Shown here piece by piece: positions 17,202 through 47,127 of a stretch of 60,243 bases of DNA. The stretch is from positions 1 through 60,243 of the IMG/VR virus record IMGVR_UViG_3300034190_001683. One strand, 5' to 3'. The first letter of the stretch is position 1. Each line of letters begins with the position of its first letter. The DNA comes from a virus. Taxonomy: Duplodnaviria > Caudoviricetes. Below the pieces are notes generated by a model, which was not told the origin of the DNA, searched no databases, and saw only the letters and a list, made by a program, of their open reading frames with translations. A program made the translations under genes and the position numbers.

Positions 17202-17211
17202 AGGAAAAGAT

Positions 17212-18132: not shown

Positions 18133-18134
18133 AA

Positions 18135-19916
18135 ATGATTCCGCAACAAGGTCTAACTACTATATTAAAAGATAAAATGGCTAATATAGAAGCCAAGGCT
18201 AGAGCTTTTTTAATGTCAGATGACAAAATAGGTTTTATAGCAAAACTTATGCAAGACAGCCCTACCGAAGTCGCTCCTATTGTGAACGCAGGAAGAAGAA
18301 TAGCAGGTGAACAAAAAGCTATGATGATGGCGCAAGCTCAAGACACACAACCTTCAGTTACACAAAACAATCTAAAAGCAATTACAGAGCCTGTAACTGC
18401 CGCTAGAAGTGGTGGAGCTATTTCATCTTTACCAATAAAAGATAGTATGTTTAGAGCAGCAGGTGGTGGTATCGTTGCGTTTGCAAATGGTGGTGGTATA
18501 CAACCAAATTTTTATCCGGGACTACCGGGTGTAAATAGGGCGCAAGCAATAGAAAATGAAAAAAGAAAAAGAATTATGGAGGCTGAAAGAGAAGCTAATA
18601 AACAAGGTAAAACTCTATTTACGCCTAGAAGAAGTCCGGGCTTTGTAGATTTCCTTGGAGGCGACAGCCCGATAACCACACCTTCATTACCTCCCGGACA
18701 ATCATACACGCCGGGTATATTTGGTTTAATGCGGGGACAGTCAGCAAATCAAAAAGCTGCTGAAGCTGTAGATGCGCCTCAGACTCAGGTGTCGAGAGCA
18801 GATATCGAAGCGTTAGCTGCAGGTGATAAAAAAATAGAAGATGTAGATTTAACAAGAGCTAGAAGTGATACTTCACTGGTTCCTAGATTCTCTGACGACG
18901 ATTTAAAAACAGCTTTAGAAGCAGATGATGTGTTAAAAACAAAACTTGATTTTGAAGACGCTGCGTTAAAACAAGATGGTACTCCGACAATGGAGGACAC
19001 GGGTCTTATGGGTCAAGCTGTAGATGATAAGAGAAAAGAAACACCTGACAGAATACAGTTTGAGTTTACAGATGCGGACACATTATTAAAAGAAGCTCAA
19101 GAAACAGCCGATAGTATATTTAAAAAAGTAGAAGGTTCAGATGACTTTGCAAATCCAGAAAAAGCGGTTGCAGATACAAGAGCATTTTTTGAGAAGTCTG
19201 GTGTAGATTTAACTAACGCAGCACAAAAAGCAGCTTTGGATAAGCAAGAAGCATTATTAGCCAAGGATAAAAAAGAAGGTGCTATGTATGCGTTACTTGA
19301 GTTTGGTTTTGGTTTAATGGCAGGTAAAAGCCCAAATGCTTTAACTAATGTGGGAGAAGCAGGTAAAGCAGTAGCGCCAAGACTATTCCAGTTACAAAAA
19401 GATATAAGAAAAGGTAACGAGCGTTTAACAGATGCTAGACTTAAATTAGCAGAATTAGAAAATACTCAAAAAATGGGTATAGCTAAAGTCTCTATGGACA
19501 GAATAGAAAAAGAGAAAGAAAGAATAGCTAGAGCAAACGACAGATTAATGCAAACTAAAGCTTCATTTATAAACTCTTTCATGCAAAACAGAAGAATGTT
19601 AGAAACTTCTAAACTTAGCGCAATGACAAATCTACGAACTGCTGAGATGAGAGTTGAGGCGCAAGATAGAGCAACGCAAGCTCAACTTGATAAGGTCACC
19701 AGAGATAAATTGATAGCGGAAGCGCTTAATATGCCAGAAGGTCCAGAAAGAACAAAACGTTTAGAAGAAATTAACAAGGTGTACTTTAGACCAGATCCTT
19801 TTGCGAGTCTTGGTGAGCGACTTAGGACGGCTGGTAAGGGAGCAGGACTAGAAGATAAAGAAATTACTGCTTTAGAAAATAGGTTAGGACTAACACAAAT
19901 AAAACAAATACCATGA
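18135..19916 (+). CDS. Putative internal virion/ejection protein
   Basis: AAGGGIVAFANGG motif; hydrophobic ALLEFGFGLMAG segment; coiled coils. Confidence 0.6.
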   Translation: MIPQQGLTTILKDKMANIEAKARAFLMSDDKIGFIAKLMQDSPTEVAPIVNAGRRIAGEQKAMMMAQAQDTQPSVTQNNLKAITEPVTAARSGGAISSLPIKDSMFRAAGGGIVAFANGGGIQPNFYPGLPGVNRAQAIENEKRKRIMEAEREANKQGKTLFTPRRSPGFVDFLGGDSPITTPSLPPGQSYTPGIFGLMRGQSANQKAAEAVDAPQTQVSRADIEALAAGDKKIEDVDLTRARSDTSLVPRFSDDDLKTALEADDVLKTKLDFEDAALKQDGTPTMEDTGLMGQAVDDKRKETPDRIQFEFTDADTLLKEAQETADSIFKKVEGSDDFANPEKAVADTRAFFEKSGVDLTNAAQKAALDKQEALLAKDKKEGAMYALLEFGFGLMAGKSPNALTNVGEAGKAVAPRLFQLQKDIRKGNERLTDARLKLAELENTQKMGIAKVSMDRIEKEKERIARANDRLMQTKASFINSFMQNRRMLETSKLSAMTNLRTAEMRVEAQDRATQAQLDKVTRDKLIAEALNMPEGPERTKRLEEINKVYFRPDPFASLGERLRTAGKGAGLEDKEITALENRLGLTQIKQIP

Positions 19917-22900
19917 CCCCAAAAGAAAAATACAGAGCTTTAGGAGAGAATTTCTTAAAAATATACCGCTCTCCAGAATATGGACCTGAAGTTGCTCAAC
20001 AGTATTTGGCTTCTTACAACTTAGACTTTGAAAGCCTTAATAAAGCCATAGATGCTACAGATGATGAGACTACTTTTAGTGAGTTTATAGATCAGGTTCA
20101 AGAAGGGTTTAAAGGTATTATCCCCGGTGCGGCAGGTACAATAGAGACTGGGGTTGTTGGTGCTTCTGCATTAGCACCTGACGAGGGGTTTATAACAGAA
20201 AAAGGTATCCGTGATACAGCATCAGATGTATTAAGACCATTACAAGAGTTTGCAGCTCCAGAAGCAGGATTTGAAGAATCTACTGGTAGAAAGATTGGTG
20301 AAGGTCTAGGTTCGTTTTTATCTTTTGTAGGTTTAGGGTTAATACCCGGATTTGGTAAAGCGGGGTTAGCAGGGTTTGCCGCAGCTACAGGAGCGGGTGA
20401 GGCACGTTTACGTGCAGAAGCAGAAAATGCTACTCCAGAACAAATTAGTGATGCGACATTCCGTGGAACTTTTGTTGGTCTATCAGAAGCGCTTGCTCCT
20501 GCTAAAGTTTTAGGCCGTATTAAACGAACTAAAGAGGGAGCTACAGCAGTAAATAAAGCTGTTGATAGAATCTCCAGTGCTGCTATAACGGGAGGAATAG
20601 AAGGCGCACAAGAAGCTGCCGCAGGTATAGCTCAAAACTTTATAGCTCAAGACATATATAAACCGGAACAAGAATTAGTAGAAGGTCTTGGGGAAAACTT
20701 TACGATTGGAGCCACAGTTGGTGTAATAGCACAAGGATTATTTGATTTAGCCATACCACGTGCAACAAAAACTGCAAAAGCTACCACAGAAGAAAAACCT
20801 GCTACTCAAGAAGATACAGAACCTGCAAAGATGCCTACAGTACAGGAAGAGTTATTTCCTGATGATAAAAAACCTAGTAGAGCTGAATTGTCAAAACTAT
20901 CAGATAAACAAAAAGAAATAAATAAATTCAAACGTGCAGACTTCAGAGACCTTGAAAAAGAACAGACAGATCAATTCATCATAAAAGAAATTAAAAATAC
21001 AAGAGATGAGTTTGATATGTTCCAGCGTGAGAACCAAAGGCTTGAGGCTGCTTTTAATAAATCAAAAGATACAGCGGAACGAAACAGGTTAGGAAAACTA
21101 GGCCAAGAGAATTTTGCTACTATGGCTACATTAGAGCAAAAGATAAACACGTTAAAAGAACAGGCCGCTAAACGCAGGATTGCTAAATCTAAGTATGAAA
21201 GACCGACAACTCCAAAAGGACAAGCAGAGCTTGATTTCTCTGGCACTTTAGAAGACACAAGAGACCCAGTTAAAGCCCCACTACCCAAAGCCACAGCACT
21301 AGGTGGATTAGACCCAAATGTAAAATTAACTCCTGAACAGGAAGATTTTTTTATACAAGAAAGAACTAAAGCAGCCGTAGGGAAAAAAACAAAGGGAGAG
21401 GTTTTATCTGCCGAAGAAAAAGTATTAACAGATGCAAGAGATAGAGAAATAAGACAGACAGAAGTTGACTTACAACAAACAGGGGTGCAAAAAAGAGTAC
21501 CACCCTTAGTATTAAAGTCTCCTGAAGATGTTGTGTTAGGCACTCGTCAACAAGAGCAAGAATTATTGGAAGATTTAGAAGGTATAAAAAGTATTAGACA
21601 AAAGCAGTTAGATGAATTAGAGCAAGAAATAGCTAATACCACTGATAGAAATGCAAAAAGAAGGCTACAGAGAAGATTTAACAGAGTTGCTGAAGATATA
21701 AAAGGTATAAATGAAAGATTACCTCAACAACTTTTTGATGTAAGTAGAGCTAAAGATGAGGCAGTGCCGACACCAGAAGCACCCCAAAAAATAACTGAAG
21801 CAGATTTTAAAGAAATGGGTATAGGTCCTACAAACAAAAGTCTGCGTAAAAAAATACTTGGTAAAGATTTAGATAACCCAAATGAAAGAGCTGAAGTACG
21901 TGATGCTTTAAACACATACGTGCAAACTGGCAATAAAAGTGAGGGTTTACGAAACCGAGTAGAAAGTTATTTATCTAAGCCTGTATTTGCAGAACAACTA
22001 TCCTTGGGTTTACCACAACCAGTAAAGGAGACAATAGATGATAGAAGAAGAGAAATTACCCCTGACAGCGAAAGAGCTGTCCTTGGCGATGCAGCATCTG
22101 TGGCTCCCGGACCCAGTCCCGAAACAATTACAGCACCTGTCGGAGAAAGAGTGGATACAGGTAGGACTGATACTAGACAGGCTGATGTCAGAAAGAGACA
22201 GGTCGACCCTACATTAGAAGGAGAAGGAGATCTTCCTATAGGAGAAGTTTCTCGCCCTGTTCCATTAGAAGTTACAGAAGATTTCAAAAAAGCTTTTCCT
22301 AAAACGACCACAGAAACAGAAGCTGTGAGTGAATCAATGGAGGGGTTAGGAAAGTCTTTAGAGAAGTTTATTAAAAGAATACGTAAAGCAAGAGAAGAAA
22401 AGAAAGAGAAAGAAGCTAAGAAAAAACCTACAAAACAAGAACAACAAGAGTCTTTACAGACGGCTATAGTTGCAACTCCTCTAAACGAATATATACAAAG
22501 ACAACACAAAACAAAAACCCTAAATGAAGATAGAGAGTTAGAATATTTTGCAGCAGATTTGTACGTAGAGGGAAGAGCTAAGTTAGGTAAGATAAACCTA
22601 ACTGACGTTGAGACTGGTCCAAAAAGAAGAGTAAATACAATAAAATACTCTGGTTTAACTAAAACCGAAAGAACCGTTTTAGAAAGTTTAAATGAAGAAC
22701 AAAAAGCAAAAGTAGATAATAAAGTTCTTGAACTAATAGCTACCGAAGAAAAAGCAAATAAATATCAGGCTAGGTTAGATCAAGAAAAAGAAACAAAAGT
22801 AGCTGAACTAAAAGAAGGTAATACACACGTAAAAGCTATCGTAAAAATAAAAAATGAAATCATAAAAGATTGGAAAAATGCTCCTAGGATAGATGTTGTA

Positions 22901-25900
22901 CCAAATGAAAACAGACTTCCTGCAAAAATACAAACTTACTTAGAAAACAAGCGTAACGAAGATCTTCTTGATGATGATAAAAGAGTAAGAGGTGTATTTG
23001 ATGCAGAAACTAATACTGTTTACTTAGTAGCCAACGCACTTAAAGCTAATAACCAACAAGTTGCAGAAACTATATTACATGAGTCCATAGGACACTTTGG
23101 TTTACGTGCTGTGCTAGGTGATAAATATTCAGAAACGATGCAAAACATCTATAAAAATGGTAATAAAGAATTACAACAAATAGTAAATACCATGATGCAG
23201 ACAGAAGGTTTGTCAAAAGAATCTGCTGTAGAAGAATTAATAGCCGATAGCGCTGAAAAGTTAGCTAGTGGGAAGAACATAATATCTACTCTAAAATCAC
23301 TTGTTAACAAGACAGTTGCTTTTATTAAAAAATTCTTGAGAGACAACTTAGGTATTAAGATATCTGACAATAAGACTGTAGAAGACTTAGTAGCTAAATC
23401 CCTAAACTTTGTTATAAATGGTAGAAAGAAAAAATTGAAAAGAAACCCATATGCGGCAGAAATAATGCTACAAAGTGTGGCGTTAGATGCACCGGGTACT
23501 CTTGCTATAGAGAATTTGCTTTCTAAAAATATTTCTAACAAAGGTAATAATGAAGTATTTAAAGAGTTCGTAGAAAAAAATTCTTCTGTCACTGCTATGA
23601 AAGGGTTTTTCTCTAGGGCAGCGGCTAGGATAGAAGTAGAAGTAGGCTTTAAAGGCGCTTCAGTAGAACGTAAATTAAAGAAACTATATAACGGAGCAAT
23701 TAGAAACGTATTAGGTGATATAAGACCTGACTTGTTTTTAACAATGGCTGAACACTCAGATACATTAGGAACGGCTGTTATGAAGCAAGGTAAGTTGATG
23801 TTCTCAAAAGAGACTGGATGGCAAGCCGTTAAAGATAAAGATTCTTTGTTTGAAGCATACCAACAAATCGCTGATTTTGGACAGCAAATACGTGACCCAC
23901 AAAAAGCTATGGATGTGGTTAGTGATGTGTTAGTCGCAGTAAGAGCAAGTGAACTTAAAAAATACAGAAAAGACATACCTGAAGAATTGTTACCTTCTCA
24001 AGATGCTATTAACGCAGGATTAAAAGTACGAGAAATGTATCCTCAGATACAAAAAATAGAAAACACATTAAAAAATTACAGATTTAATTTAATAGATGCT
24101 TTAGTAGAAGCAGGAAGCTTGTCAAAAGATAAAGCTGATTTATGGAAAAAGGCTTCAGGGTATATACCTTGGAATCGTATAAAAGATGAAGACATTAGTA
24201 GGTTTGAAAGAGAGCCTAAAAAAGTTATAAGAGAATTAGCAACCAGAACTGAAACACGTGCATTAAAAGGTAGTAAGTCAGAAATAAATAACGTGATGAG
24301 TAATATGGTTGGATTGTCTTTTTGGATGGTTAATAGCGCAGTGCGTAATCACGCCGCACTTAGTTTAGTTGATACATTTGCAAAACCACAAAAAGATGGT
24401 GGACTAGCTACGTACGAAAAAGGTGTTTTAGTTGAAGGCGCTAAGAAAGTTAAAGGTATAGCAGAAAGTGCGTCTCAAGATCAAAAAGATAGAACGGTGC
24501 AAGTATATAGAAATGGTAAAAGAGAGTTTTATGAATTTGCTGATGTATTAGACGTATATGCCTTTAAAGGTCTGGAAGTACCCACTTCAAAAATTATTGA
24601 CGGATTTACTCTTGCATCTAATGCTCTAAGAAAAGGTGTTACAGCTATGCCTGAATTTGCGTTTAGTCAGCTATTTCAAGACGCATCACGTGCATATGTA
24701 TTGTCTGGAACTCAAAATCCTTTTAGAACAGCAAGTGGTGTAGTTAACCCATTAGCATATTTTTCTTCTAGGTTTTTAAAAGACCCAACGATTGAAAAAT
24801 TACGTAGTTTTGGGATAACTGGATCTTACGATTTGATGCACGGTAAAGCGCAAAAAGAAATAATGAAAGAGTTTAACTTAAATGAGAAAAAACCTTATGA
24901 TGCTTTACTAAACCCTCTTTCTAAAACATTTGATTTCTTAGAAAATTTCTCAATAGCATCGGATGCTAACTTACGAAAAGCTATATATGAACAAACATTA
25001 AGAGAGACTAAGTCTGAAAGATTTCCTGACGGTGATATATTGGAAGCTAGATACAGGGCGCAAGAGATAATTAATTTTAAACGACAAGGCGCCAATAAAA
25101 CCGTAGCTGTTGCAAGACAGATAGTGCCATTTTTAAATGCGTATATACAAGGTATGAGTGTCTACTATAGAACAATGATGGGAGAAGGAATTACTAACCA
25201 AGAAAAACGTGCGGCATTTAATTTATTCCTAAGTTCAGCAGCTAAACTAACGGCTTTAAGTTTTTTATATGCCACATTAGTTGCAGGAGATGAAGAATAT
25301 GAAGCACAAGAAGATTATATAAAAAACAAAAATTTCTTTATACCGGGTACACCGTTAAAAATCCCTGTTGCTCCAGAAATAGGTTTTTTATTTAAAGTTT
25401 TACCCGAAAGAACATACAGTTACATAGCTAGTCAAGGAACAGAAAGGCCACAGGACGCAACTAAATTTCTTGAGGCTATGAGAACAGCTCTTGTTGATAG
25501 TTTTAGTGGCCCAAACTTAACTCCTCAATTACTTAAAACCCCTGTCGAGTTACTCGTAAATTATTCTTTTTTTAGAGATGCTCCTATCGTACCTACACGA
25601 TTAAAAAATTTAGAAGAAGAGCTTCAATTTACTTCATCTACGTCAGAGTTTTCTAAATTTATAGCGCCATATATGCTGGGTAATCCCATACAAATAGATT
25701 ATTTTATAAAAGGTATGTTTGGCATATTAGGAGGAAACGTATTATACGCAACTAACTTAATAACTGCGCCAAATAGAAGAGATTTTAACTATTATGAAAT
25801 ACCGATTGTAAAAACATTCACTCGTGATGCAATACCATCTGGTCTTAAATCAGAGTTTTATGCTCTTAGAGATGATATGGACAGAGTAGCAGATTCAATT

Positions 25901-26170
25901 CGTCAATTATCTTTAAACCCTGCCGATGCCGATAATTTAATAGAATATTTAAGTAAGGATAATAACTACGATAAGCTTTACATATCTAAAATATTAGATA
26001 GCGTACAAAGACAATTATCTATGTCCAGAAGAGCAAAGCGAGATATTGAAGCAAGTAAAGATTTATCCAGTGAGGAAAAACAAGAACTTGTTAACAGAAT
26101 AGACGAGCATGACAATATGCTTATAAGGTCTATAAACATACCTAAAATTAGAAAATTCCTAGGATATTAA
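19913..26170 (+). CDS. Large polyvalent/ejection protein (zincin-like HExxxH domain; LPD38-like C-terminus)
   Basis: 2085 aa; RGVFD...VYLVA...ILHESIGHFGL; C-terminal INF.R.G...VPFLNAYIQG motif. Confidence 0.7.
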   Translation: MTPKEKYRALGENFLKIYRSPEYGPEVAQQYLASYNLDFESLNKAIDATDDETTFSEFIDQVQEGFKGIIPGAAGTIETGVVGASALAPDEGFITEKGIRDTASDVLRPLQEFAAPEAGFEESTGRKIGEGLGSFLSFVGLGLIPGFGKAGLAGFAAATGAGEARLRAEAENATPEQISDATFRGTFVGLSEALAPAKVLGRIKRTKEGATAVNKAVDRISSAAITGGIEGAQEAAAGIAQNFIAQDIYKPEQELVEGLGENFTIGATVGVIAQGLFDLAIPRATKTAKATTEEKPATQEDTEPAKMPTVQEELFPDDKKPSRAELSKLSDKQKEINKFKRADFRDLEKEQTDQFIIKEIKNTRDEFDMFQRENQRLEAAFNKSKDTAERNRLGKLGQENFATMATLEQKINTLKEQAAKRRIAKSKYERPTTPKGQAELDFSGTLEDTRDPVKAPLPKATALGGLDPNVKLTPEQEDFFIQERTKAAVGKKTKGEVLSAEEKVLTDARDREIRQTEVDLQQTGVQKRVPPLVLKSPEDVVLGTRQQEQELLEDLEGIKSIRQKQLDELEQEIANTTDRNAKRRLQRRFNRVAEDIKGINERLPQQLFDVSRAKDEAVPTPEAPQKITEADFKEMGIGPTNKSLRKKILGKDLDNPNERAEVRDALNTYVQTGNKSEGLRNRVESYLSKPVFAEQLSLGLPQPVKETIDDRRREITPDSERAVLGDAASVAPGPSPETITAPVGERVDTGRTDTRQADVRKRQVDPTLEGEGDLPIGEVSRPVPLEVTEDFKKAFPKTTTETEAVSESMEGLGKSLEKFIKRIRKAREEKKEKEAKKKPTKQEQQESLQTAIVATPLNEYIQRQHKTKTLNEDRELEYFAADLYVEGRAKLGKINLTDVETGPKRRVNTIKYSGLTKTERTVLESLNEEQKAKVDNKVLELIATEEKANKYQARLDQEKETKVAELKEGNTHVKAIVKIKNEIIKDWKNAPRIDVVPNENRLPAKIQTYLENKRNEDLLDDDKRVRGVFDAETNTVYLVANALKANNQQVAETILHESIGHFGLRAVLGDKYSETMQNIYKNGNKELQQIVNTMMQTEGLSKESAVEELIADSAEKLASGKNIISTLKSLVNKTVAFIKKFLRDNLGIKISDNKTVEDLVAKSLNFVINGRKKKLKRNPYAAEIMLQSVALDAPGTLAIENLLSKNISNKGNNEVFKEFVEKNSSVTAMKGFFSRAAARIEVEVGFKGASVERKLKKLYNGAIRNVLGDIRPDLFLTMAEHSDTLGTAVMKQGKLMFSKETGWQAVKDKDSLFEAYQQIADFGQQIRDPQKAMDVVSDVLVAVRASELKKYRKDIPEELLPSQDAINAGLKVREMYPQIQKIENTLKNYRFNLIDALVEAGSLSKDKADLWKKASGYIPWNRIKDEDISRFEREPKKVIRELATRTETRALKGSKSEINNVMSNMVGLSFWMVNSAVRNHAALSLVDTFAKPQKDGGLATYEKGVLVEGAKKVKGIAESASQDQKDRTVQVYRNGKREFYEFADVLDVYAFKGLEVPTSKIIDGFTLASNALRKGVTAMPEFAFSQLFQDASRAYVLSGTQNPFRTASGVVNPLAYFSSRFLKDPTIEKLRSFGITGSYDLMHGKAQKEIMKEFNLNEKKPYDALLNPLSKTFDFLENFSIASDANLRKAIYEQTLRETKSERFPDGDILEARYRAQEIINFKRQGANKTVAVARQIVPFLNAYIQGMSVYYRTMMGEGITNQEKRAAFNLFLSSAAKLTALSFLYATLVAGDEEYEAQEDYIKNKNFFIPGTPLKIPVAPEIGFLFKVLPERTYSYIASQGTERPQDATKFLEAMRTALVDSFSGPNLTPQLLKTPVELLVNYSFFRDAPIVPTRLKNLEEELQFTSSTSEFSKFIAPYMLGNPIQIDYFIKGMFGILGGNVLYATNLITAPNRRDFNYYEIPIVKTFTRDAIPSGLKSEFYALRDDMDRVADSIRQLSLNPADADNLIEYLSKDNNYDKLYISKILDSVQRQLSMSRRAKRDIEASKDLSSEEKQELVNRIDEHDNMLIRSINIPKIRKFLGY

Positions 26171-26209
26171 AAAAATCCCCCAGTAAAGTGTCCGCTCTCT
26201 ACTAGGGGA
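26169..26209 (-). terminator. Intrinsic terminator of the leftward arm
   Basis: Minus strand UCCCCUAGUA...UACUGGGGGA followed by U7; one G.U pair forms only on this strand. Confidence 0.65.
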
Positions 26210-26278
26210 AAATGCCTTTCTAACTTTCGGTGAAGGAGAGCCAAAAACCTAGAAAGGACTTTTAAAATGAACGAATGT
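26169..26278 (-). ncRNA. Candidate small RNA with anti-Shine-Dalgarno apical loop
   Basis: Upstream promoter-like motif, long stem with loop CUCUCCUUCA, then terminator. Confidence 0.45.
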
Positions 26279-26284
26279 GAGTAA

Positions 26285-26314
26285 ATTCTACCATTCTATT
26301 CTCCAACATCGCAA
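26285..26314 (-). promoter_or_regulatory. Putative sigma70 promoter (TTGCGA-N18-TAGAAT, extended -10)
   Basis: Read on the minus strand; TG motif precedes TAGAAT. Confidence 0.45.
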
Positions 26315-26491
26315 CCCATATCTATTCTTATCTATAACTTGTTTGCATATTACGTTATATTTACGCCTATTTGCCTCCGCTAAGACATATTCTTTTACTG
26401 GTTTGACGTCCAAACAAGGGATAAAAACAGACGTACCAACCTCAAATTCATTCCAAGATATCCTCACTGGCAGACCCATTATCCGTATCAC
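26288..26491 (-). CDS. Hypothetical protein
   Basis: ORF track; GTG start after GAGGGG. Confidence 0.6.
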   Translation of the reverse strand: MIRIMGLPVRISWNEFEVGTSVFIPCLDVKPVKEYVLAEANRRKYNVICKQVIDKNRYGLRCWRIEW

Positions 26492-29312
26492 TTGCAAACC
26501 CCTCTAAATCAAAACTATCTAACTTTTTAGTATTGAACTCAAGACATCTAACACTATTTGTTGCGCTAGATAAAGACGTACCTGCTAATAATCTTTTCTT
26601 CTTTATGCCTAGATAAGACCCACTCTTCTTGTAATCTAACAAAGAGTCTTCAAAACTGATGTAGTTTCTACTGCAATACTGCTGATACATACTTTTAGAT
26701 ACATACAGTCTTTCCTCATCTTTCTCTAATCTAGCTACACAAGAGGTTCTAGGTTCTTTTATTGCGCCCATATCTAACCCTGTGCGTTTATCTTTACCCA
26801 CGTTAACAACTGTAATACCTAATGGGTGCGAGTTTAGGAACGCTCCTAGTATCTCTCCATATTCCGTCAAAGAATCTTTGTTACTCTTTCTACTGTGGTT
26901 AATTAAGTTAACGCAATAATCAAATACAGGTTTTATAGGTATATCGTGCAGTCCTAAATCTTTTGCTATCATCCCACCTGTTAGTGCAACTGCCGCACCT
27001 GCTGACCAAAACCTTTCAGTATTTTTAATGTTAGCGGCTCTATCCATTATCTGGTTTGTTTCGTTTAACTTAGCAATTACATCTGGTAAGTTGTTTACAC
27101 AGTATTGAATATACGGTTTTATTGCGTGTCCGTAGTGTTTACTTATCCTACCAAAGTGAGCCTTTGACCACGTTGGGTCATTAAATTTATCTACTGGTAA
27201 CTTGTCTTCCAGTATACGCATTAATTCGGCGTCGGGAAAAGCCTTAATAGATAATAATTTATCTCGTATTCTAGTATTAGAAGTAGATACCACAGGAATA
27301 GACCAAGTAGTTTTGTTTAATCTTTCTTTATTTGCTTTGGCATCCATTCTATTTTTGCCACGACCTGATGTAATGTCATAGATGAGGTTACTCATCATCT
27401 TTGGTTCCATGTTTGTTATTTCATCAATAGTCGGTGTTAAACTTTGCATAGAACCTAATCTTTGCATCCTAGAGTTGTGCGTATCATCCCACTTTAAAAC
27501 TAATGCTTTTGGGTTTCCATAAATACTATTTAACAAATGTAGCACCGAGGATTTACCTGCCCCACTTCCGGGAGATATCAAATTATATAACAACCCATCT
27601 AACATACCGTCTCCCACAAACTTCATGAGAGGACCACCAAAACCTAGAAAAAATGCAAAAGCTTTACCGATTCTATCTTCGTGTGCATAGGCATTGATAA
27701 TATCTTTCCACGTGTGGAAGTCTCCTCTTTCATGAAACATAGGTGTTAGTATTAGTGTGGGTGTTGTTGGAGGGCTGTATGATGGTTCTGCCTGTCCAAC
27801 TCTTATCTCTTTATCTCCATACACAAATAAACTATCTTCGTCATGCCAACCAAACTGTCTCCTAGCTATTTCTGCTTTCTTTTCATTCTGTAATTTTTCT
27901 ACTGATTTGTTTATGTATTGCATCAAATAATCCTGTCTTTTTCCTAAAGCTGTTACACCATGAAATGCCACCGCCGCTAAAAATTTATCTTTAGCCAGAG
28001 TAGAACTCAAAGGTACTATGAACTCTCTAACTCCATCCTTAGGTAAATGTAACCTAATTAAAAGACTTTCGCCATCTTCTGGGTCATGTATTCTCTTTAC
28101 TACATATAAATCGTATGGATAAACACATACATTTTCGGGCGGTTCTTCTTCACTCTTTTTAATTTCTATGTATACACCACCTGTAGGCGGTCTGTTAAAT
28201 CCACGTGGCGGTAATGGTATTTCATATGTTTGTTTTTCTTTTGTGACAGCATTTTCTTCTTTGACTACATAGTCTTCTACTTTAGATTTTATAAACTCTT
28301 TACCTAACACAACAGGAGAAGTTATCTTGTGTTGACATCCTTCACATCCACCCGGATTCAAAGTTTTAAATGTCTCACATTTATATGGTCCTTTAGTTTT
28401 CGATGCTTTATAAAATGCTTCTTCTTCATTGTAGTGTGGATGCTTGTTAGACATTATCCGAATAGCTTTTGACCTATCTGTACATACTTCTGCTATAGAT
28501 AAAACTGCTCTCCACATAGGTTCTTCTAAAGATTCTTGATTACCATATGCGTATACTATTTGGGCGCAACCAACACCCCCCATAGATTTCTTGAATATTG
28601 TTTTAAATTCAGTTTTAAAGTTGCCTTGTAGTTTCTTTGTTAGAGGGTCGGTGTAATCTCTAAAATCTTTTTTCCGTAGTTGGTCAAATAAAGATGCCGA
28701 ACTATATCCACTTACTGCATTTTCTATTTGTTCTAACTCTACAGGCTCACCCTTACTACGCACAACTACTGGTTTTGGTTCATCTCCCTTGAAGTTAAAT
28801 GTATCTGGTACACGTAAAATCCTAGCATTGTCAGCCGTGACGTTTGCATCAGCAGAGAAGTTTTTATCTGAACATAAGGCTTTTAAACTCTCAGCAATAG
28901 GCTTCCACGTCTCTTTTGATATCGACGTAGTTAAAACCCAGTAAACGTGTATACCGTTACCAGAATCTACTAACAAAGATGGTTTAGGTAAACCTGCTTC
29001 TCTACGAAAAGCTTTGAAGGCTTTTAAACCATCGGACTTTGTTTCATAGTCTTTATTAGGCCCACAGTCCACATCCATAAAAAAACATTTAAGTTCTTTA
29101 GAATTTTCTTGCGACCTACTACTATCATCAGTAAATGATGCCAAAGCGACGTACGCATCGCTCTTTCTTTCAACTATTCCTTCTGTATCTTTAACTAATT
29201 CATCAACAGTTCTATAAAATTTATCTTTATTATTTTTTCTTTTTATATCTGTAGAACAATATAGACCGTTAGTCGGTAATACAAAAGAAAGAAACTCTTT
29301 CTTTGTAAGCAT
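26448..29312 (-). CDS. Primase-helicase (AEP/RepB-like primase, DUF927-like region, P-loop helicase)
   Basis: FFMDVD, SGNGIHVYW and RILRVP primase motifs; Cys cluster; Walker A GSGAGKSS, Walker B IDE. Confidence 0.85.
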   Translation of the reverse strand: MLTKKEFLSFVLPTNGLYCSTDIKRKNNKDKFYRTVDELVKDTEGIVERKSDAYVALASFTDDSSRSQENSKELKCFFMDVDCGPNKDYETKSDGLKAFKAFRREAGLPKPSLLVDSGNGIHVYWVLTTSISKETWKPIAESLKALCSDKNFSADANVTADNARILRVPDTFNFKGDEPKPVVVRSKGEPVELEQIENAVSGYSSASLFDQLRKKDFRDYTDPLTKKLQGNFKTEFKTIFKKSMGGVGCAQIVYAYGNQESLEEPMWRAVLSIAEVCTDRSKAIRIMSNKHPHYNEEEAFYKASKTKGPYKCETFKTLNPGGCEGCQHKITSPVVLGKEFIKSKVEDYVVKEENAVTKEKQTYEIPLPPRGFNRPPTGGVYIEIKKSEEEPPENVCVYPYDLYVVKRIHDPEDGESLLIRLHLPKDGVREFIVPLSSTLAKDKFLAAVAFHGVTALGKRQDYLMQYINKSVEKLQNEKKAEIARRQFGWHDEDSLFVYGDKEIRVGQAEPSYSPPTTPTLILTPMFHERGDFHTWKDIINAYAHEDRIGKAFAFFLGFGGPLMKFVGDGMLDGLLYNLISPGSGAGKSSVLHLLNSIYGNPKALVLKWDDTHNSRMQRLGSMQSLTPTIDEITNMEPKMMSNLIYDITSGRGKNRMDAKANKERLNKTTWSIPVVSTSNTRIRDKLLSIKAFPDAELMRILEDKLPVDKFNDPTWSKAHFGRISKHYGHAIKPYIQYCVNNLPDVIAKLNETNQIMDRAANIKNTERFWSAGAAVALTGGMIAKDLGLHDIPIKPVFDYCVNLINHSRKSNKDSLTEYGEILGAFLNSHPLGITVVNVGKDKRTGLDMGAIKEPRTSCVARLEKDEERLYVSKSMYQQYCSRNYISFEDSLLDYKKSGSYLGIKKKRLLAGTSLSSATNSVRCLEFNTKKLDSFDLEGFASDTDNGSASEDILE

Positions 29313-29343
29313 AATAATCCCCTAGGGTAGGGGGAATTACCCC

Positions 29344-29577
29344 CTAGTTTTTTAATTTAGCAACTAACTTTTCTACCTGTTTGATATGCGTGTCTTGAAT
29401 TGTAGTAATACCTTTGAACCAATTGTAGACAGTCATCCGAGTAACATTAAGATACTCAGCCACATCATTTACAGGTATATCGTTTTGTACACAAATTAAC
29501 CCTAGTTTTACACCTAACAAGTCTGAGTCCGCTTCGTTAACCGCATTAACAAATTGCACGGAGTAACCTTTTGACAT
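29344..29577 (-). CDS. Cro/XRE-like helix-turn-helix protein
   Basis: VAEYLNVTRMTVYNWFKG. Confidence 0.8.
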   Translation of the reverse strand: MSKGYSVQFVNAVNEADSDLLGVKLGLICVQNDIPVNDVAEYLNVTRMTVYNWFKGITTIQDTHIKQVEKLVAKLKN

Positions 29578-29580
29578 ATA

Positions 29581-30450
29581 TCACTCCTCGTCGTCGTCCC
29601 ACTCGTCAATAACTTTCTCTACATCAACCTTAGACGGAGCCTCTTTTTCTTTCTTATTGGCTACCTTTTTAGGTTCAGCAGACTCGGCAGGTTCCTCTAT
29701 CTTAGCAGGTGCTTCCTTATGCTCTATCTGTTTGGCAGTTTGATTAACCGACATAGTAACTAACCTTTTTACCTCATCAGATTCAGACTTCTCAAGTGCT
29801 ACATCAAACTCGTCATTCTCTAATAAACGTACAGGCTTGAAAGTTATCTTACCAATACCAGAAGTATCAAAACGCATCTCTGTTACTACAGACATGATAG
29901 GTGCGCCCTGTGTAGCAATACGTCTTGCATATGCTTGTAAAGGCCACTTGTTATTTTCACCCTCACCGAAAATAGACTTAGCAGGTACATTCAATTGATA
30001 GACAGGGCCATTAATATCACCTTCCAAAACAACAGCAATACGTTGTTGGAATCTACAAGCACGGCTCTCCCCTTGCCCAGAACCTTTGATATTTTGTGGA
30101 CAGTCTACACAATTTTTAGACTGTGGGTTTTCTACTTTCGGGTCTGGTTTAGAACCATCAGCCGACCAACAATCAGGTGCAGATACTACACCTTTCTTAT
30201 AAGCCCCTGCATAATAAATCCTAGAGACGTGTTCAGATGCGCCAACAATAACTACATTCATGGCACGGTCTTCATTACAAGCAACTTCTTTACCGTCTAC
30301 CATCATGCGCCATACACCACCCTCAATGGAAATACGTCTAATTCCAGAACCACCAGAACCACCCATCAATGACTTCGTTAAATTATCTACACCACCCTTA
30401 TTACGAATGTGGTCAGGTAATCCTTTTTTAAATATTGCGATATCGCTCAT
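29581..30450 (-). CDS. Putative ssDNA-binding/annealing protein
   Basis: Replication module; CWS.DG..P and C..CP.N motifs; acidic C-terminal tail WDDDEE. Confidence 0.55.
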   Translation of the reverse strand: MSDIAIFKKGLPDHIRNKGGVDNLTKSLMGGSGGSGIRRISIEGGVWRMMVDGKEVACNEDRAMNVVIVGASEHVSRIYYAGAYKKGVVSAPDCWSADGSKPDPKVENPQSKNCVDCPQNIKGSGQGESRACRFQQRIAVVLEGDINGPVYQLNVPAKSIFGEGENNKWPLQAYARRIATQGAPIMSVVTEMRFDTSGIGKITFKPVRLLENDEFDVALEKSESDEVKRLVTMSVNQTAKQIEHKEAPAKIEEPAESAEPKKVANKKEKEAPSKVDVEKVIDEWDDDEE

Positions 30451-30469
30451 TTCACTCTCCCATAGTTAA

Positions 30470-30856
30470 TTAAGTTTTTCTACGAACTGTTACAGCATAA
30501 CGACTGTCCACATTAAGTCCCGGAGGTAACTTGTCAGGATTCTCCTGTAAAAACTGACTCATGTTGGATTGCGCTATGCGCTTCTCTAGTAACTCTAACG
30601 CATTGTTATCTTTTATAAACTCATACATAGATTGCCAATCAGCCGTATGGTATCTCTTCGATATACGTCTTGTTACCGTGCCATAATCTGTGCGTAAACT
30701 TTCCGCACCTGTATCTTTACAAACTTCAAGAAGTTCGTTTTCTATCACACGTAAAGCTTCTTTCAACTCTTCGTCTTTCTTTTCAAACTCGCTTTTAAGA
30801 TCAGCACGTTTGTCCCGAATCTTTACGTAGACTTTTACTAGCTTATCTACTTTCAT
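30470..30856 (-). CDS. Coiled-coil phage replication-module protein
   Basis: ORF track; GGAGGAGG RBS. Confidence 0.75.
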   Translation of the reverse strand: MKVDKLVKVYVKIRDKRADLKSEFEKKDEELKEALRVIENELLEVCKDTGAESLRTDYGTVTRRISKRYHTADWQSMYEFIKDNNALELLEKRIAQSNMSQFLQENPDKLPPGLNVDSRYAVTVRRKT

Positions 30857-30887
30857 TTACCCTCCTCCATTTAAAACACGTATATAA

Positions 30888-30916
30888 ATACTACAACCTA
30901 CTTTATACATTGTCAA
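30888..30916 (-). promoter_or_regulatory. Sigma70 promoter TTGACA-N17-TAGTAT
   Basis: Perfect -35 with 17-nt spacer upstream of 30856. Confidence 0.7.
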
Positions 30917-32460
30917 TCATCTTCTAAAATATTTTTATATAAATCGACAAGTTTATTATGTACATCAATTTTTGACTGTAGCATTTTGTACATTTTCTTT
31001 TCTGCATGAGACCCTTGTAAGTGTACGACAGTACATGGATTCTTTTGACCTGCCCTGTGTACTCTTGCGTTTGCTTGTAAATACGTTTCTACAGACATGA
31101 CAGCAGACCAATACACCACCACGTTTGCGGCGTGGAGCGTTACTCCATGCGATGCGGCTTGTGGTTGTATGACTAATATTCTTGGGTCTTTTGTTGTTTG
31201 GAATCTATTAAATATATCTGTTCTATTGTTTACAGATACTCCCCCATGTATCACATCACACGTATACTTGTTTTTAAGTAGATAGTCTTCTATTAAATTT
31301 ATTGCATGACGGTAGGGTGCAAACACAATAACTTTGTGACTTGCTTCATCAATAACTTCGGTCAACACTTGTAGTCTATTAGATACATCAAACTCTACTG
31401 TATCTCCATTATCCGTGTATACCGCACCACAAGATAATTGTAGGAGTTTGTTTAAGTTTGCAGCGGCATTAACAGAAGTTATTTCTTCTCCGGCTGCGAT
31501 AGTCATCATATCTTTTCTCATGCGTTCATAATACTTAGACTGTTGTTTTGTAAGAGGAATTTTCCTAGTTGTGTAGGTCATGTCTGGTAAATCCAAACAA
31601 TCTTTTTTTGTAAATCGTATCGCAGGTTGTAAAGCCTTGTGAACTACATCCTCTGCTTTTTCTTTTGGTAGCCATATAAATTGAGATACTTTATACATGA
31701 CAAGATCTTTGAACGTACCGAAATATTTAGGTACATTAGCGGGGTTTATAATTCTAGCCAAACCATACGCATCTGTGGGAGATTGCGATGCAGGTGTACC
31801 TGTCAGCATCCATACCCATGTATGTGGTTTTATTATCGAGTTTAGTATCTTCCATCTTTTTGTAGTAACCGTTTTATATGCGTTTGCTTCGTCTACTACT
31901 ATAAGGTCAAACTCATTGTTATTTACTGCATCTCGTATAATCTGCAATCCATCATAGTTACATATTACAAACTCAGCATCAGAGTTTACGACCTCTATCC
32001 TTTTTTCTCGTGAATAGCTATGGGCTATCGCTACCGACCTATGGATAGCAAATTTAAATAAGTCTCCACCCCACGCAGATTGCATGATAGATAGAGGACA
32101 TAGCACTAAAACTCTTTTGATAAACCCTAGTTTCATTAAATAATCAGCCGCCCATATTACACTAGCTGTTTTGCCCGTACCTTGTTCGTTAAAAACAAAC
32201 GCACGACGATTTAATGTTAGGAATGAGGATGTTTCTTTTTGATGTTCAAATGGTTTGTATTTACCACCCCATTTATAATTTCTACATATGGGACTGGGGA
32301 CGTTTTTTATTTTTAGATTTTTTAAAACTTGTGCTTCTTCTAAACCCCAATTTACTAATACTTCGTTAGAAGAAAGTGATTTGCTTTTTGGTATTACCTC
32401 TGTGATCTTATTAGGCTGTCGTACTTTTAGTAGCAAAGCCTTGTTGTCTATGATCTCCAT
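30913..32460 (-). CDS. SNF2-family (SF2) helicase
   Basis: QGTGKT, VDEA, LTGTP, QANARVHRAGQ motifs; AAGGAGAG RBS before ATG 32460. Confidence 0.92.
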   Translation of the reverse strand: MEIIDNKALLLKVRQPNKITEVIPKSKSLSSNEVLVNWGLEEAQVLKNLKIKNVPSPICRNYKWGGKYKPFEHQKETSSFLTLNRRAFVFNEQGTGKTASVIWAADYLMKLGFIKRVLVLCPLSIMQSAWGGDLFKFAIHRSVAIAHSYSREKRIEVVNSDAEFVICNYDGLQIIRDAVNNNEFDLIVVDEANAYKTVTTKRWKILNSIIKPHTWVWMLTGTPASQSPTDAYGLARIINPANVPKYFGTFKDLVMYKVSQFIWLPKEKAEDVVHKALQPAIRFTKKDCLDLPDMTYTTRKIPLTKQQSKYYERMRKDMMTIAAGEEITSVNAAANLNKLLQLSCGAVYTDNGDTVEFDVSNRLQVLTEVIDEASHKVIVFAPYRHAINLIEDYLLKNKYTCDVIHGGVSVNNRTDIFNRFQTTKDPRILVIQPQAASHGVTLHAANVVVYWSAVMSVETYLQANARVHRAGQKNPCTVVHLQGSHAEKKMYKMLQSKIDVHNKLVDLYKNILEDD

Positions 32461-32520
32461 CGTACTCTCCTTTCTATACACGTACAGACCAAAGTAACAT
32501 TTTTACTTAGTCAGAGGACA

Positions 32521-32796
32521 TTATACCTTTTTCTTTTTATAATTACGAGATCTATTTTTCTTTTTGGATTCTATTTTATATCCGTCTTTGTTTGTGCCAC
32601 CTTTACTCAACGGTTTACTGTGGGATATATCTTTACCCTCACGTTTGTCTGCTTTTCCGTTTTTGTTTCTGTCAGGATATTTTTTATCCATAGCACGTCT
32701 AGCACGTTGACGTTCCATTCGATCTTTGTGTTCGCCACGTTTCTTCTGCATCTTGTATTCGTGCTTGTATGGTCTTTGCTTCTTTGTATAAGGCAT
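32521..32796 (-). CDS. Small basic HNH-like protein
   Basis: KDISHSKPLSKGG.N...NRSRN resembles the beta-beta-alpha HNH motif. Confidence 0.6.
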   Translation of the reverse strand: MPYTKKQRPYKHEYKMQKKRGEHKDRMERQRARRAMDKKYPDRNKNGKADKREGKDISHSKPLSKGGTNKDGYKIESKKKNRSRNYKKKKV

Positions 32797-33012
32797 AATA
32801 TTTATTCTTCTCTAGTTTATGTTTTCTACTCATTAAATGAAAATAGTGAACAACTTTGTGGTTAGGAAAATCATTCATAAAAAACAACATAGCAAAATTA
32901 CTCTTAGGGACTAAATACCTACTTACCTTAATTTTTTCATCCCCAAATTTGTGGAATATAACTATGTTATGTAACCACCTTTCAACCACCGTCGTATATT
33001 TTTTCCCCACTT

Positions 33013-33690
33013 TTAATCTGCTCTTCCATTGTGAGGACAACTTAATACAGCGCAATAATTTTTACAAGTGAAGTTTGGTTTAGCGTTCCACGTGTTTGAT
33101 TTAAAAGAGTCTTCTAAATTATCTGTATTCTCAAACCAATACGACCAACTTTCGTCCTGATCTTCTGCCTTGTAATTGGCTTTTATAAACTCTTTGGATA
33201 TGACAAACAGTAAACCTGCCTTCACTTTCTTTATTTTAGGGAAATGTTTAAAGATTGCCAAGGATAATATTTCTAATTGTTTAATATCCGCATACTTACT
33301 GCTTTTTCCTGTTTTATAATCAATGAGATACGCTTTATCGTCTCCTAAAACTATTAGGTCTGCGATACCTCTCCACCACACGTTTTTATCAAAAAACCCA
33401 CAAGGTTCAAGATCTCTGGTCAAACCCATGCGATATTCGCACAATCTGTCTCCCTGTATTTCTTTTAGTTTAGCCAACATACCACCCAAGTAGCTTAGTT
33501 CTTCTGGTAGTGATACATTTTCTTTTAGATGGTCTTCGGCTACTTTGTGTACCCTGTTACCAAATGTAAGTGCCTCTGTCTGTGGTTCTTCGACATCTTT
33601 TACAACTTTCAAATGATAGTATTTCTTAGGACACATTTTGTACATACTCAATGCCGAGTATGACCACGAATATTTTTTAGGTGTCTCCAT
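33013..33690 (-). CDS. PD-(D/E)XK exonuclease (Cas4/RecB-like)
   Basis: WSYS...CP, GIADL, IDYKTG, QL and C-terminal C...C....C. Confidence 0.88.
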   Translation of the reverse strand: METPKKYSWSYSALSMYKMCPKKYYHLKVVKDVEEPQTEALTFGNRVHKVAEDHLKENVSLPEELSYLGGMLAKLKEIQGDRLCEYRMGLTRDLEPCGFFDKNVWWRGIADLIVLGDDKAYLIDYKTGKSSKYADIKQLEILSLAIFKHFPKIKKVKAGLLFVISKEFIKANYKAEDQDESWSYWFENTDNLEDSFKSNTWNAKPNFTCKNYCAVLSCPHNGRAD

Positions 33691-37441: not shown

Positions 37442-37641
37442 TATCTCTCTCCTTGGTCTAATCCTTCCCAATCCATACGAATCCTATCCAACAACAAAAT
37501 CATATCGCTTTTTGTTTTTATGTCGTGCTTTTCAACACGCCCTGTGTCGGGACAAAATTCCTTCATACATTTTTCAGCTTCACGCTTTGAACTAAATGCC
37601 TGAAAAATACCGCTACCTGCATCGCAAACATAAATAATCAT
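37441..37641 (-). CDS. Hypothetical protein
   Basis: ORF track; tight packing. Confidence 0.55.
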   Translation of the reverse strand: MIIYVCDAGSGIFQAFSSKREAEKCMKEFCPDTGRVEKHDIKTKSDMILLLDRIRMDWEGLDQGER

Positions 37642-39627: not shown

Positions 39628-39647
39628 ATTTGCTCTCCTTTTTAAAA

Positions 39648-40706: not shown

Positions 40707-40880
40707 TCACTCTCCTTTATCTTTTTTGATTTTAGCTAACTCAGACAATAACGTAGCGAGCGCATCTATTGTTCCATGCACCATCATTCTAACTTGCACT
40801 ATCTTTTTGTAGATAGTCATATGCAGATAGATAATGTACGTCACTAACAAACTAATAATAATCGCCACTTCATCACTCAT
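40707..40880 (-). CDS. Small membrane protein (57 aa)
   Basis: Hand-translated MSDEVAIIISLLVTYIIYL...; AAGGAG RBS. Confidence 0.6.
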   Translation of the reverse strand: MSDEVAIIISLLVTYIIYLHMTIYKKIVQVRMMVHGTIDALATLLSELAKIKKDKGE

Positions 40881-42466: not shown

Positions 42467-42476
42467 TTGCTCTCCT

Positions 42477-42758
42477 TTAGTTAATTATTGAATCAATCTT
42501 AGCTTTGGCATTTGCGAGATAAACTTCTTCATCTGTGTTGGGGTTTGGACTATACAATCTCTCATCAACAACATTTCCGTTTTTATCCACAACTTGGTAA
42601 GTATATTTTTTTAATCCTGATACCATGTTGCAACTTTCAAAAGGAAAATTCATAATTGCTGATATAAGTATGTCATAACCTCTATACTCAACAAGTTCCC
42701 CTGAATTTATCTTGAGGTTTCGTATGTGGTTTGTTACAGAGTCTTTATCTTTACTCAT
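42477..42758 (-). CDS. Hypothetical early protein
   Basis: AAGGAGAGC RBS. Confidence 0.7.
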   Translation of the reverse strand: MSKDKDSVTNHIRNLKINSGELVEYRGYDILISAIMNFPFESCNMVSGLKKYTYQVVDKNGNVVDERLYSPNPNTDEEVYLANAKAKIDSIIN

Positions 42759-42778
42759 TTTGCTCTCCTTTAGTTAAA

Positions 42779-44975: not shown

Positions 44976-45004
44976 AATGCTCTCCTTAGTTAAGTTAAAA
45001 AATT

Positions 45005-45022
45005 GTAGGAGTCGACTCCTAC
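45005..45022. repeat. Palindrome GTAGGAGTCGACTCCTAC, copy 1
   Basis: Perfect 18-bp palindrome, intergenic. Confidence 0.95.
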
Positions 45023-46146: not shown

Positions 46147-46177
46147 TTGACTCTCCTTAATTTAAGATTAAAAAAAC

Positions 46178-46637: not shown

Positions 46638-46647
46638 TACGCTCTCC

Positions 46648-46833
46648 TTATTTTTTGTGAACAGTTTTTAAATCATCGGTGTTTGTGATTAGTTGTGGTG
46701 CGCCCTTGTTGTAGGCACACGCCACTGTGCGTGTAGGTGCGACGAAACAAGCAGGGCAATACTGATACCCTGCTTTCCATCTGCGTTTCGTTACTCGGAC
46801 ACCACACCTACACGTGTATTTACGCATGGGCAT
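46648..46833 (-). CDS. Small zinc-ribbon protein
   Basis: CRC...RRWKAGYQYCPAC...NKG. Confidence 0.7.
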   Translation of the reverse strand: MPMRKYTCRCGVRVTKRRWKAGYQYCPACFVAPTRTVACAYNKGAPQLITNTDDLKTVHKK

Positions 46834-47056: not shown

Positions 47057-47127
47057 AATGCTCTCCTTTAAATAAAAATAAATAAAAACAAATTGACACA
47101 AACAGAGTGTCGATGAACACTTAGGTC

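Follow-up and report, generated by a model that had tools for sequence, protein, structure and literature searches.

The window analyzed here is a whole phage contig of 60,243 bp (IMG/VR record IMGVR_UViG_3300034190_001683; G+C content 38.7%), and the phage is an uncultured marine one. Rightward genes, among them those for the terminase, a lectin-fold protein of 1142 amino acids (aa) and a 2085-aa LPD38 protein, occupy positions 1-26170 and 49.3-60.2 kb; leftward genes, which include those for a DNA polymerase, a helicase and a DUF927 primase/helicase, occupy positions 26288-49011. The subject of this analysis is the 117-nucleotide (nt) gap between two convergent open reading frames (ORFs), namely the 2085-aa ORF, with its stop at 26170, and a small leftward ORF, with its stop at 26288. 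To judge from sequence comparison, this stretch very probably is a real small regulatory RNA gene of the phage. The predicted RNA, ~109 nt in length, is encoded on the minus strand (26170..26278, the 5′ end being placed by the -10 element and the 3′ end by the U run) and apparently belongs to a large, apparently undescribed family that is found in uncultured aquatic phages.

The minimum free energy fold of the minus strand of 26165-26284 reaches -36.0 kcal/mol, compared with -22.6 ± 3.0 kcal/mol for shuffled sequences (z = -4.5), and none of the 200 shuffles folded as well as the RNA. Hairpin 1 (26210..26261, minus strand) is a long imperfect stem with the outer strands CCUUUCUA/UAGAAAGG and the inner strands UUUUGG/CCGAAA. 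Its 10-nt apical loop, CUCUCCUUCA (26231..26240, minus strand), is the proposed seed and contains CUCUCCUU, the exact complement of AAGGAGAG, a sequence found at the ribosome-binding sites (RBSs) of ten leftward genes; a ninth pair (G:C) requires opening of the base pair that closes the loop. Hairpin 1 is followed by an intrinsic terminator (26169..26209, minus strand) with a 13-pair stem (26209-26176), an 8-nt loop and U7. The predicted folds leave the seed unpaired, in the window RNA as in its relatives, and the window RNA holds no ORF of 30 aa or more. An earlier note, made from the sequence alone, had pointed to these elements, that is, a promoter-like TTGCGA-N18-TG-TAGAAT, the long stem, the loop and the terminator, and all of them are present as it described them. 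At the sequence level, the locus has what is expected of a small RNA gene, its own promoter and a Rho-independent terminator bounding a short non-coding transcript. It is not a plain terminator consisting of a GC-rich stem and a T run with no other conserved feature: hairpin 1, the seed and the promoter are conserved as well. On the plus strand, in the sequence that follows the 2085-aa LPD38 gene (26170-26260), both hairpins precede A-rich or mixed sequence and no convincing terminator is seen; speculatively, late read-through transcripts, which would be perfectly antisense to the small RNA, could titrate it.

The -35-like hexamer TTGCGA (26314-26309, minus strand) coincides with the Leu-Arg codons of the conserved YGLR motif in the small ORF. 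It is separated by an 18-nt spacer ending in TGg from TAGAAT (26290-26285), with which this TGg forms the extended -10 element TGgTAGAAT (26293-26285, minus strand); the small ORF stops at the TAG of this element (26290-26288). The -35 element and the spacer accordingly lie inside a protein-coding gene, the -35 element in its last codons. The 67-aa ORF (26288..26491, minus strand), which starts with GTG in the window and with ATG in relatives, overlaps the 3′ end of the primase gene and is kept across the whole family, with the motifs FIPC.D, CKQV and YGLR.WR; it has no Pfam or PHROG match, and the Atlas lead, DUF7303, scores just 0.86.

Relatives were found by primase-based scans of viral and metagenome contigs, for which the DUF927 primase/helicase (26448..29312, minus strand), the last large gene of the leftward replication module, served as the marker; the primases of these relatives show 34-96% identity to the window primase, or 42-100% to secondary queries. 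Directly downstream of the primase and the small ORF, a module made up of the promoter, a C/U-rich seed, a hairpin and a terminator was recognized at 82 loci, which represent 49 distinct versions in a pattern-based count, come from marine and freshwater viral contigs and have primases with 42-96% identity to the query of each scan; further module-bearing clades, beyond these 82 loci, were recognized by eye. The order of elements is the -35 in the Leu-Arg codons, a TAnnnT -10 at a distance of 16-18 nt, placed at the stop codon or beyond it, the C/U-rich stretch with the small hairpin, the GC-rich terminator with its U run and then the convergent gene. One relative (L174) has no module. The most distant module-bearing relative (L146, primase 34% identical) has another and better promoter, TTGACC-N17-TATTAT (within its positions 5970-6300), and its RNA contains two tandem UCUCCGUAAUA/ACUCCGUAAUA motifs (repeated UCUCCG/ACUCCG) ahead of the terminator. 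An exact 14-mer pattern scan of viral contigs returned at least 120 stretches, nearly all by chance, and recovered the module in just two contigs that were already known; a DNA search of the phage collection with 25600-27000 gave no match, and the best match of the primase in a cultured phage has 27% identity.

Conservation of the promoter among these relatives is seen at the level of codon choice. The search pattern was open to all six Leu codons, and the Leu codon of the YGLR motif is TTG or TTA in all 49 distinct versions, compared with a TTR share of 39% among the 4265 Leu codons in the primase ORFs of the same loci, a bias that points to selection for a promoter function of the DNA. Among the 42 distinct RNAs that were folded, the -35 reads TTGCGN in 36 and TTACGN in six, and the spacer measures 17 nt in 34, 18 nt in five and 16 nt in three. 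A scripted search found a TAnnnT hexamer at a spacing of 16-18 nt in 39 of the 42; for the remaining three, the script gave GATATT with a spacer of 16 nt and reading by eye gave TATTCT with a spacer of 18 nt. The putative promoter would in this way be locked in place by a synonymous-codon constraint within a protein gene.

The RNA sequences themselves are diverged among the relatives. All 42 folded relatives nevertheless have a GC-rich terminator that ends in a U run, and its stem shows compensatory changes. The close and middle marine clades have the long hairpin of the window with other stem sequences: in the clade with 69% identity, the stem GACUUUUUUGUGGUUUG...CCAAAUGAUAAAAAAGUC encloses the loop ACUCUCCUUCC, in which the core is kept, and in the 60% clade the loop is CUUUCCUU, which still pairs with AAGGAGAG via one G-U pair. 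In an alignment of ten marine-type sequences, 11 of the 20 predicted pairs, from both hairpins, are kept through two-sided changes. The loop is kept in relatives while the stem covaries, both in the 69% clade and in the ten-sequence alignment, and, by conservation and covariation, the proposal of the earlier note that the locus is a discrete structured RNA gene with a C/U-rich loop antisense to the phage's own leftward RBSs is the most likely one.

In the majority of the other clades the RNA takes a short form (54-75 nt), in which GCACUCU at the 5′ end is single-stranded and hairpin 1, a spacer rich in U and A and the terminator come after it. The stems of hairpin 1 differ among short forms (UCUCC/GGAGA, CUUCC/GGAAG, ACUUC/GAAGU, CCUAUC/GAUAGG and UUCUUCUC/GAGAAGAA). 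Because the length of hairpin 1 varies, MAFFT and RNAalifold applied to 32 short RNAs recovered the terminator alone, and hairpin 1 was therefore judged from single folds. In freshwater clades, the small ORF extends 10-20 codons into the RNA (tail ..HSSSP..), and the frames differ. Depending on the clade, the conserved GCACUCU lies in two different reading frames or outside the small ORF (outside in the window), so that coding does not explain its conservation.

A simpler account would be that there is no separate RNA, that the hairpins only form the 3′ untranslated end of the leftward operon, with its terminator, and block the convergent late operon, and that the complementarity to RBSs is coincidental. 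The location between convergent genes, the unremarkable promoter score and the fact that none of the listed RNA contigs lies over the site are all compatible with this account; nevertheless, the presence of a -10 at conserved spacing from a -35 in fixed synonymous codons, the retention of seed motifs across changing frames and the co-variation of seed and target described below make it very unlikely. Furthermore, on the plus strand, hairpin 1 has no T run after it in several relatives, which implies that it is not a plus-strand terminator, and a 3′-end fragment without a promoter of its own could still act by pairing.

Candidate targets were sought as exact complements of each genome's own RNA. 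In several diverged clades one gene stood out, located ~4.6 kb upstream of the RNA and orthologous (47-57% identity) to the window gene 30470-30856. This gene (30470..30856, minus strand) is two genes upstream of the primase and encodes a 128-aa protein with below-cut-off matches to DUF7307 (Pam3 gp33-like) and to Mu Gam/Gp157-like models. In the window, UGGAGGAGGGU in its start region (30859..30869, minus strand) is predicted to pair with the loop sequence GCUCUCCUUCA through 11 pairs, of which three are G-U; the loop-limited duplex of -17.5 kcal/mol ranks third among the 86 start regions (40 leftward and 46 rightward genes, all counts being those of heuristic gene calls), with AAGGAGAG genes next. 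Four sister versions of this site have a perfect AAGGAGAGC or AAGGAGAGCC, or AAGGAGAGUC, and the RBS of the gene (30857-30886, minus strand) is GGAGGAGG in the window and AAGGAGAG in three relatives (G003, G004 and G005) whose proteins are 80-93% identical.

Seed and target change together across clades. At the 128-aa gene, the complementary sequences differ from clade to clade, being GGAGAGUGAA with UUCACUCUCC, GGAGAAUGCG with CGCAUUCUCC, CAAGGAGAAC with GUUCUCCUUG and AAGGAGAGUGCGA with UCGCACUCUUCUU. The GCACUC of the RNA has its partner in a GAGUGC of the target, which lies either ahead of the AUG or within codons 2-3. In genes that start with AUG AGU GCA, the duplex of the invariant GCACUC with GAGUGC falls in codons 2-3 and is combined with pairing of UUCUCC to the Shine-Dalgarno (SD) sequence, so that the start codon is bracketed; the energies of such duplexes range from -21.8 to -31.1 kcal/mol in seven of nine examples and are -13.8 and -16.8 kcal/mol in the other two. 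When the duplexes formed by each RNA with its own target were compared with mismatched pairs among 14 clade representatives, the own duplexes of the 128-aa gene were stronger both for the region -30..+6 (-17.6 vs. -14.6 kcal/mol, permutation p = 3.5e-4) and for the region -30..+18 (-20.5 vs. -17.3 kcal/mol, p = 3e-4). The corresponding p values for four of the five control genes, the fifth being the helicase gene treated below, are 0.26 and 0.39 for the primase, 0.036 and 0.16 for a 289-aa gene, 0.29 and 0.53 for a 77-aa gene and 0.60 and 0.29 for the DNA polymerase. The family thus shows the two features expected of a base-pairing small RNA (sRNA), a conserved accessible seed and compensatory change with a target, the latter according to a permutation test that ignores phylogeny. 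The seed very probably has co-evolved with the RBS of the 128-aa gene, which is the best-supported target.

The helicase gene (30913-32460, minus strand) adjoins the 128-aa gene, and its start region has long complements to the RNA in some clades, with duplex energies of -23.5 to -32.8 kcal/mol. The own-vs.-cross comparison gives no significant result for it as a co-evolving target (p = 0.38 for -30..+6 and 0.14 for -30..+18, nine clades); it is a plausible second target in several clades.

These observations are most readily combined in the following scheme. The RNA would be transcribed leftward from its own sigma-70-type promoter, with the -35 in the last codons of the small ORF, and transcription would stop at the intrinsic terminator, head-on to the last rightward gene; alternatively, the RNA might originate as the 3′ end of the replication-operon transcript. 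The seed, which would be the apical loop CUCUCCUUCA in the window and, in most relatives, GCACUCU..UCUCC at the very 5′ end, is predicted to base-pair with leftward mRNAs of the phage itself, over the SD sequence and the start codon. Its conserved primary target would be the 128-aa gene, and in several clades the adjoining helicase gene would be the likely second one. In the marine clade of the window, the nine further early genes with the RBS AAGGAGAG are candidate targets, and the RNA probably acts on such genes as well. Pairing at the RBS would block binding of the 30S subunit, and the translation of these replication-module and early genes would fall as the RNA accumulates. Such an explanation as a whole, in which a discrete trans-acting antisense RNA of ~109 nt pairs in vivo with RBSs, occludes them and has the 128-aa gene as its primary target, appears on balance to be the probable one.

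Several points weigh against this scheme. The match to the promoter consensus is weak, being, when taken alone, no better than chance in A+T-rich DNA (10 promoter-like sites were found in 25000-30000, compared with 17.2 expected from shuffles). Sequencing runs with the region comprise 17 DNA runs and, with small shares, three metatranscriptome runs; contigs of four RNA runs on 16000-35999 are scattered over late and early genes, and 26169-26314 is uncovered among the RNA contig pieces listed, although contigs can show neither ends nor absence. The window site of the 128-aa gene needs three G-U pairs where sister genomes have perfect complements, and among the 14 clade representatives there are four with weak own duplexes (-8.9 to -13.1 kcal/mol for -30..+6). 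The permutation test takes no account of phylogeny and its representatives are not fully independent, the start codons of the targets were picked by our own heuristic, and the duplex energies ignore accessibility. An SD-like core is common to all seeds and targets, so that the complementarity is partly generic. Finally, a primase-profile scan of bacterial genomes identified neither a relative nor a lead to the host, which bears on any host-linked dependence on Hfq or another chaperone.

A broader role was proposed in the earlier note, according to which this single RNA silences the whole early regulon through a common RBS sequence, AAGGAGAG, and thereby brings about an early-to-late translational switch. 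The RBS class on which the proposal was built is real. In the 60-kb genome AAGGAGAG has 11 matches, compared with 1.95 expected, and none of 100 shuffles reaches 11. The sole plus-strand copy is the complement of the loop within the RNA gene (26233-26240), and the ten minus-strand copies each lie 3-6 nt ahead of the ATG of a leftward gene. Four of these are located at 32465..32472 (helicase gene 30913-32460; kept in all marine clades), 37447..37454 (gene 36617-37441), 40710..40717 (gene 39648-40703) and 46151..46158 (gene 45028-46146, a PHROG ATPase with the second-best loop duplex, -18.5 kcal/mol). The six others, in which AAGGAGAG is followed by C and extends to AAGGAGAGC, are at 39633..39640 (gene 38431-39627), 42470..42477 (gene 41993-42466), 42763..42770 (gene 42477-42758), 44980..44987 (gene 44052-44975), 46642..46649 (gene 46425-46637) and 47061..47068 (gene 46820-47056). 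The note had listed these ten sites, including the six extended ones, and had asked for the RBS class to be tabulated by strand: AAGGAGAG is present at the RBS of 10 of the 40 leftward genes and at none of the 46 rightward ones (Fisher p = 2.4e-4). Two only of the nine genes other than the helicase gene have PHROG matches (the ATPase and a family of unknown function).

Further evidence on the side of a regulon is that the loop is kept where the stem has changed, that the same strand bias is seen in five related contigs, which have 2-12 copies of AAGGAGAG on the early strand and one, in the RNA gene, on the other strand, and that nine of the ten AAGGAGAG genes are within the best 14 of the 86 start regions, with loop-limited duplexes of -14.4 to -18.5 kcal/mol (the tenth falls outside this ranking, its start having been mis-set by the gene caller). 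The part of the proposal that extends to the whole early regulon has only partial support, however. Thirty of the 40 leftward genes lack AAGGAGAG, and many of them use GGAGG-type sites. The mean loop pairing of early start regions is -11.2 kcal/mol and that of late ones -10.0 kcal/mol (Mann-Whitney p = 0.06), and early start regions also pair better with a generic anti-SD sequence, the difference disappearing (p = 0.47) after subtraction of SD strength. GGAGAG sites are in excess in the marine clades alone; other clades lack such an excess, even those that share the C-UCUCC seed. Nor does the base preceding UCUCC in the RNA correlate in general, beyond the marine clades, with the base that follows GGAGA at RBSs.

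The earlier note had also called for a test of covariation between loop and early RBSs. The base flanking the loop is G in the clade of the window and A in the 69% clade, and between these clades the ninth base of the RBS is C at 6 of 10 and 2 of 9 sites, respectively, a weak shift that is not significant (p = 0.17). Orthologous genes of close relatives swap AAGGAGAG and GGAGGAGG, and several copies of AAGGAGAG have common longer flanks (TTAACTAAAGGAGAGCA), which suggests recombination as a possible route by which some of them spread. When the whole window was scanned for duplexes with a 21-nt probe, part of which was stem sequence, many G-rich chance matches came up and the scan was uninformative. 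All things considered, the silencing of an entire early regulon, and with it the early-to-late switch that it would produce, is unlikely.

A variant limited to the marine branch has a somewhat better, albeit still tentative, standing. The seed would there have moved into the exposed apical loop, 10 of the 40 early genes together with the ancestral target would have converged on AAGGAGAG, and the RNA would shut down this class of genes as a whole and leave the late genes untouched. This class-wide switch is no more than possible for the marine clade, in view of the coverage of 10 of 40 genes, the p values of 0.06 and 0.47, the lack of a non-marine excess and the toggling of RBSs. If true, such an arrangement would amount to an RNA-based counterpart of a global translational repressor whose regulon grows by RBS convergence and, for the marine clade, to a simple, portable means of shutting off a gene set by RBS type.

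An 18-nt palindrome, GTAGGAGTCGACTCCTAC, is present in five exact copies (0 expected), at intervals of ~1 kb, in the far leftward (earliest) region, at 45005-45022, 46178-46195, 47128-47145, 48081-48098 and 49133-49150. In the two copies whose minus-strand context was read, a T run comes after the palindrome and a AAGGAGAG RBS lies just downstream. These palindromes may separate early units as terminators or attenuators, or else be bound by a regulator.

Other features of the window and of its relatives are the following. The contig ends repeat each other with 94% identity (1-154 vs. 59665-59818 and 581-720 vs. 60104-60243), which is due either to terminal redundancy or to two variants that overlap in the assembly, and the sequences upstream of the genes 50-667 and 59714-60190 are identical. 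Gene 1347-1832 contains three copies of a 51-nt coding repeat (1463-1720, plus strand), two of them with 96-100% identity and one with 65%. No lysogeny functions were recognized among the genes examined, and neither a transfer RNA nor an Rfam family at gathering score was found in the whole window. In relatives, the int-alpA RNA motif (Rfam RF02996) occurs between a helix-turn-helix-type 77-aa gene and the start of the primase. It exceeds the gathering score (35.8 bits) in three of 14 loci, just upstream of the primase start (41.2, 37.3 and 36.3 bits; the matches are at L200:1997-2062, L195:1903-1967 and L212:9809-9874), and falls below it in five more; at this position the window has a 31-nt gap with a short GC hairpin (29328-29346) and no RF02996 match.

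Comparison alone thus defines a widespread RNA family with a fixed address after the primase and a target supported by co-variation, and these three properties together make it directly testable although the hosts are uncultured. Supported targets exist for few sRNAs of virulent or uncultured phages. A literature search of limited coverage yielded no description of this RNA family or of a phage RNA of such a kind.

The members of the Rfam family RF02278 (Betaproteobacteria toxic small RNA) measure 57-67 nt and form two hairpins, and their C/U-rich unpaired regions are reverse-complementary to RBSs, according to PMC5688073; their function is described as unknown (PMC5688073 and PMC6321483). In the window, a search of 25900-26600 with this model returned no match to the RNA at the gathering score (50 bits) or at E up to 10, so that the window RNA is not a member. 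Among 14 loci of relatives, five scored 30.6, 30.4, 29.3, 29.0 and 24.9 bits, and three of these five also scored 22.5-28.2 bits with anti-hemB (RF02837). The covariance model of RF02278 aligns the RNAs of the relatives end to end (model positions 1-64), and the short forms (54-75 nt) have the architecture of that family, a C/U-rich double hairpin of 57-67 nt, from which the window form of ~109 nt departs. Like RF02278 and the anti-hemB of Burkholderia, the phage RNAs combine a first hairpin with an intrinsic terminator and have C/U-rich unpaired stretches complementary to RBSs. Unlike them, the window RNA is ~109 nt long and carries the motif in the apical loop of a long stem; moreover, RF02278 and anti-hemB are chromosomal multicopy genes, whereas the present RNA is phage-encoded, has a fixed place after the primase and co-varies with a phage mRNA. 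The sub-threshold likeness to RF02278 hints at a link between both groups of RNAs.

This likeness raises the possibility that the RNA is a general anti-SD mimic akin to the toxic small RNAs of Betaproteobacteria, which would bind host and phage RBSs unspecifically and serve, for example, in host shut-off. The matches of 24.9-30.6 bits in 5 of the 14 loci and the shared layout of a double hairpin with C/U-rich stretches favor such a role; yet all these matches are below the gathering score of 50, the window RNA has none even at E up to 10, and the co-variation of seed and target reaches beyond the SD core (GAGUGC:GCACUC) and is specific to one gene among the six tested. We consider an unspecific mimic improbable, to much the same high degree as the absence of any separate RNA.

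The c4 RNA of phages P1 and P7 has loops that pair around the RBS of the phage's own ant mRNA and block its translation, as described in the 2025 review PMC12197685. The likeness is that of a phage RNA acting in trans on the phage's own mRNA at the RBS, and, among the examples in PMC12197685, c4 is the nearest functional precedent from a phage. The phage sRNAs treated there come mostly from temperate coliphages, prophages and the Vibrio phage VP882, with one set from a Pseudomonas phage, and VpdS and PreS act largely on host RNAs (see PMC12197685 for review). Unlike c4, which is processed from an operon upstream of its target ant, the present RNA appears to have its own promoter and lies downstream of its proposed targets, which are genes of the replication module and not an antirepressor gene. 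It cannot be assigned to the c4 type, given that no Rfam family reaches the gathering score in the window.

Comparable layouts are known from bacteria. Trans-acting sRNAs of the enterobacterial type begin with a 5′-terminal seed, after which come a hairpin, a spacer rich in A and U and a Rho-independent terminator, and LhrC is an sRNA of Gram-positive bacteria with C/U-rich loops; pairing over the SD sequence or the start codon represses translation. The phage RNAs resemble both in their layout, with the seed either 5′-terminal or placed in a loop and with a hairpin, a spacer and a terminator; in contrast to them, they are phage-encoded and have targets in the phage genome, and no sequence relation is apparent. 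The RegA protein of phage T4 represses the translation of many early mRNAs at their RBSs and therefore resembles the single factor, envisaged in the earlier note, that would lower many early mRNAs at RBSs; unlike RegA, the agent here would be an RNA, and the evidence favors one to few conserved targets. By these comparisons of sequence and predicted structure, the phage RNAs most likely constitute a new family of a known kind, that of trans-acting antisense RNAs that occlude RBSs.

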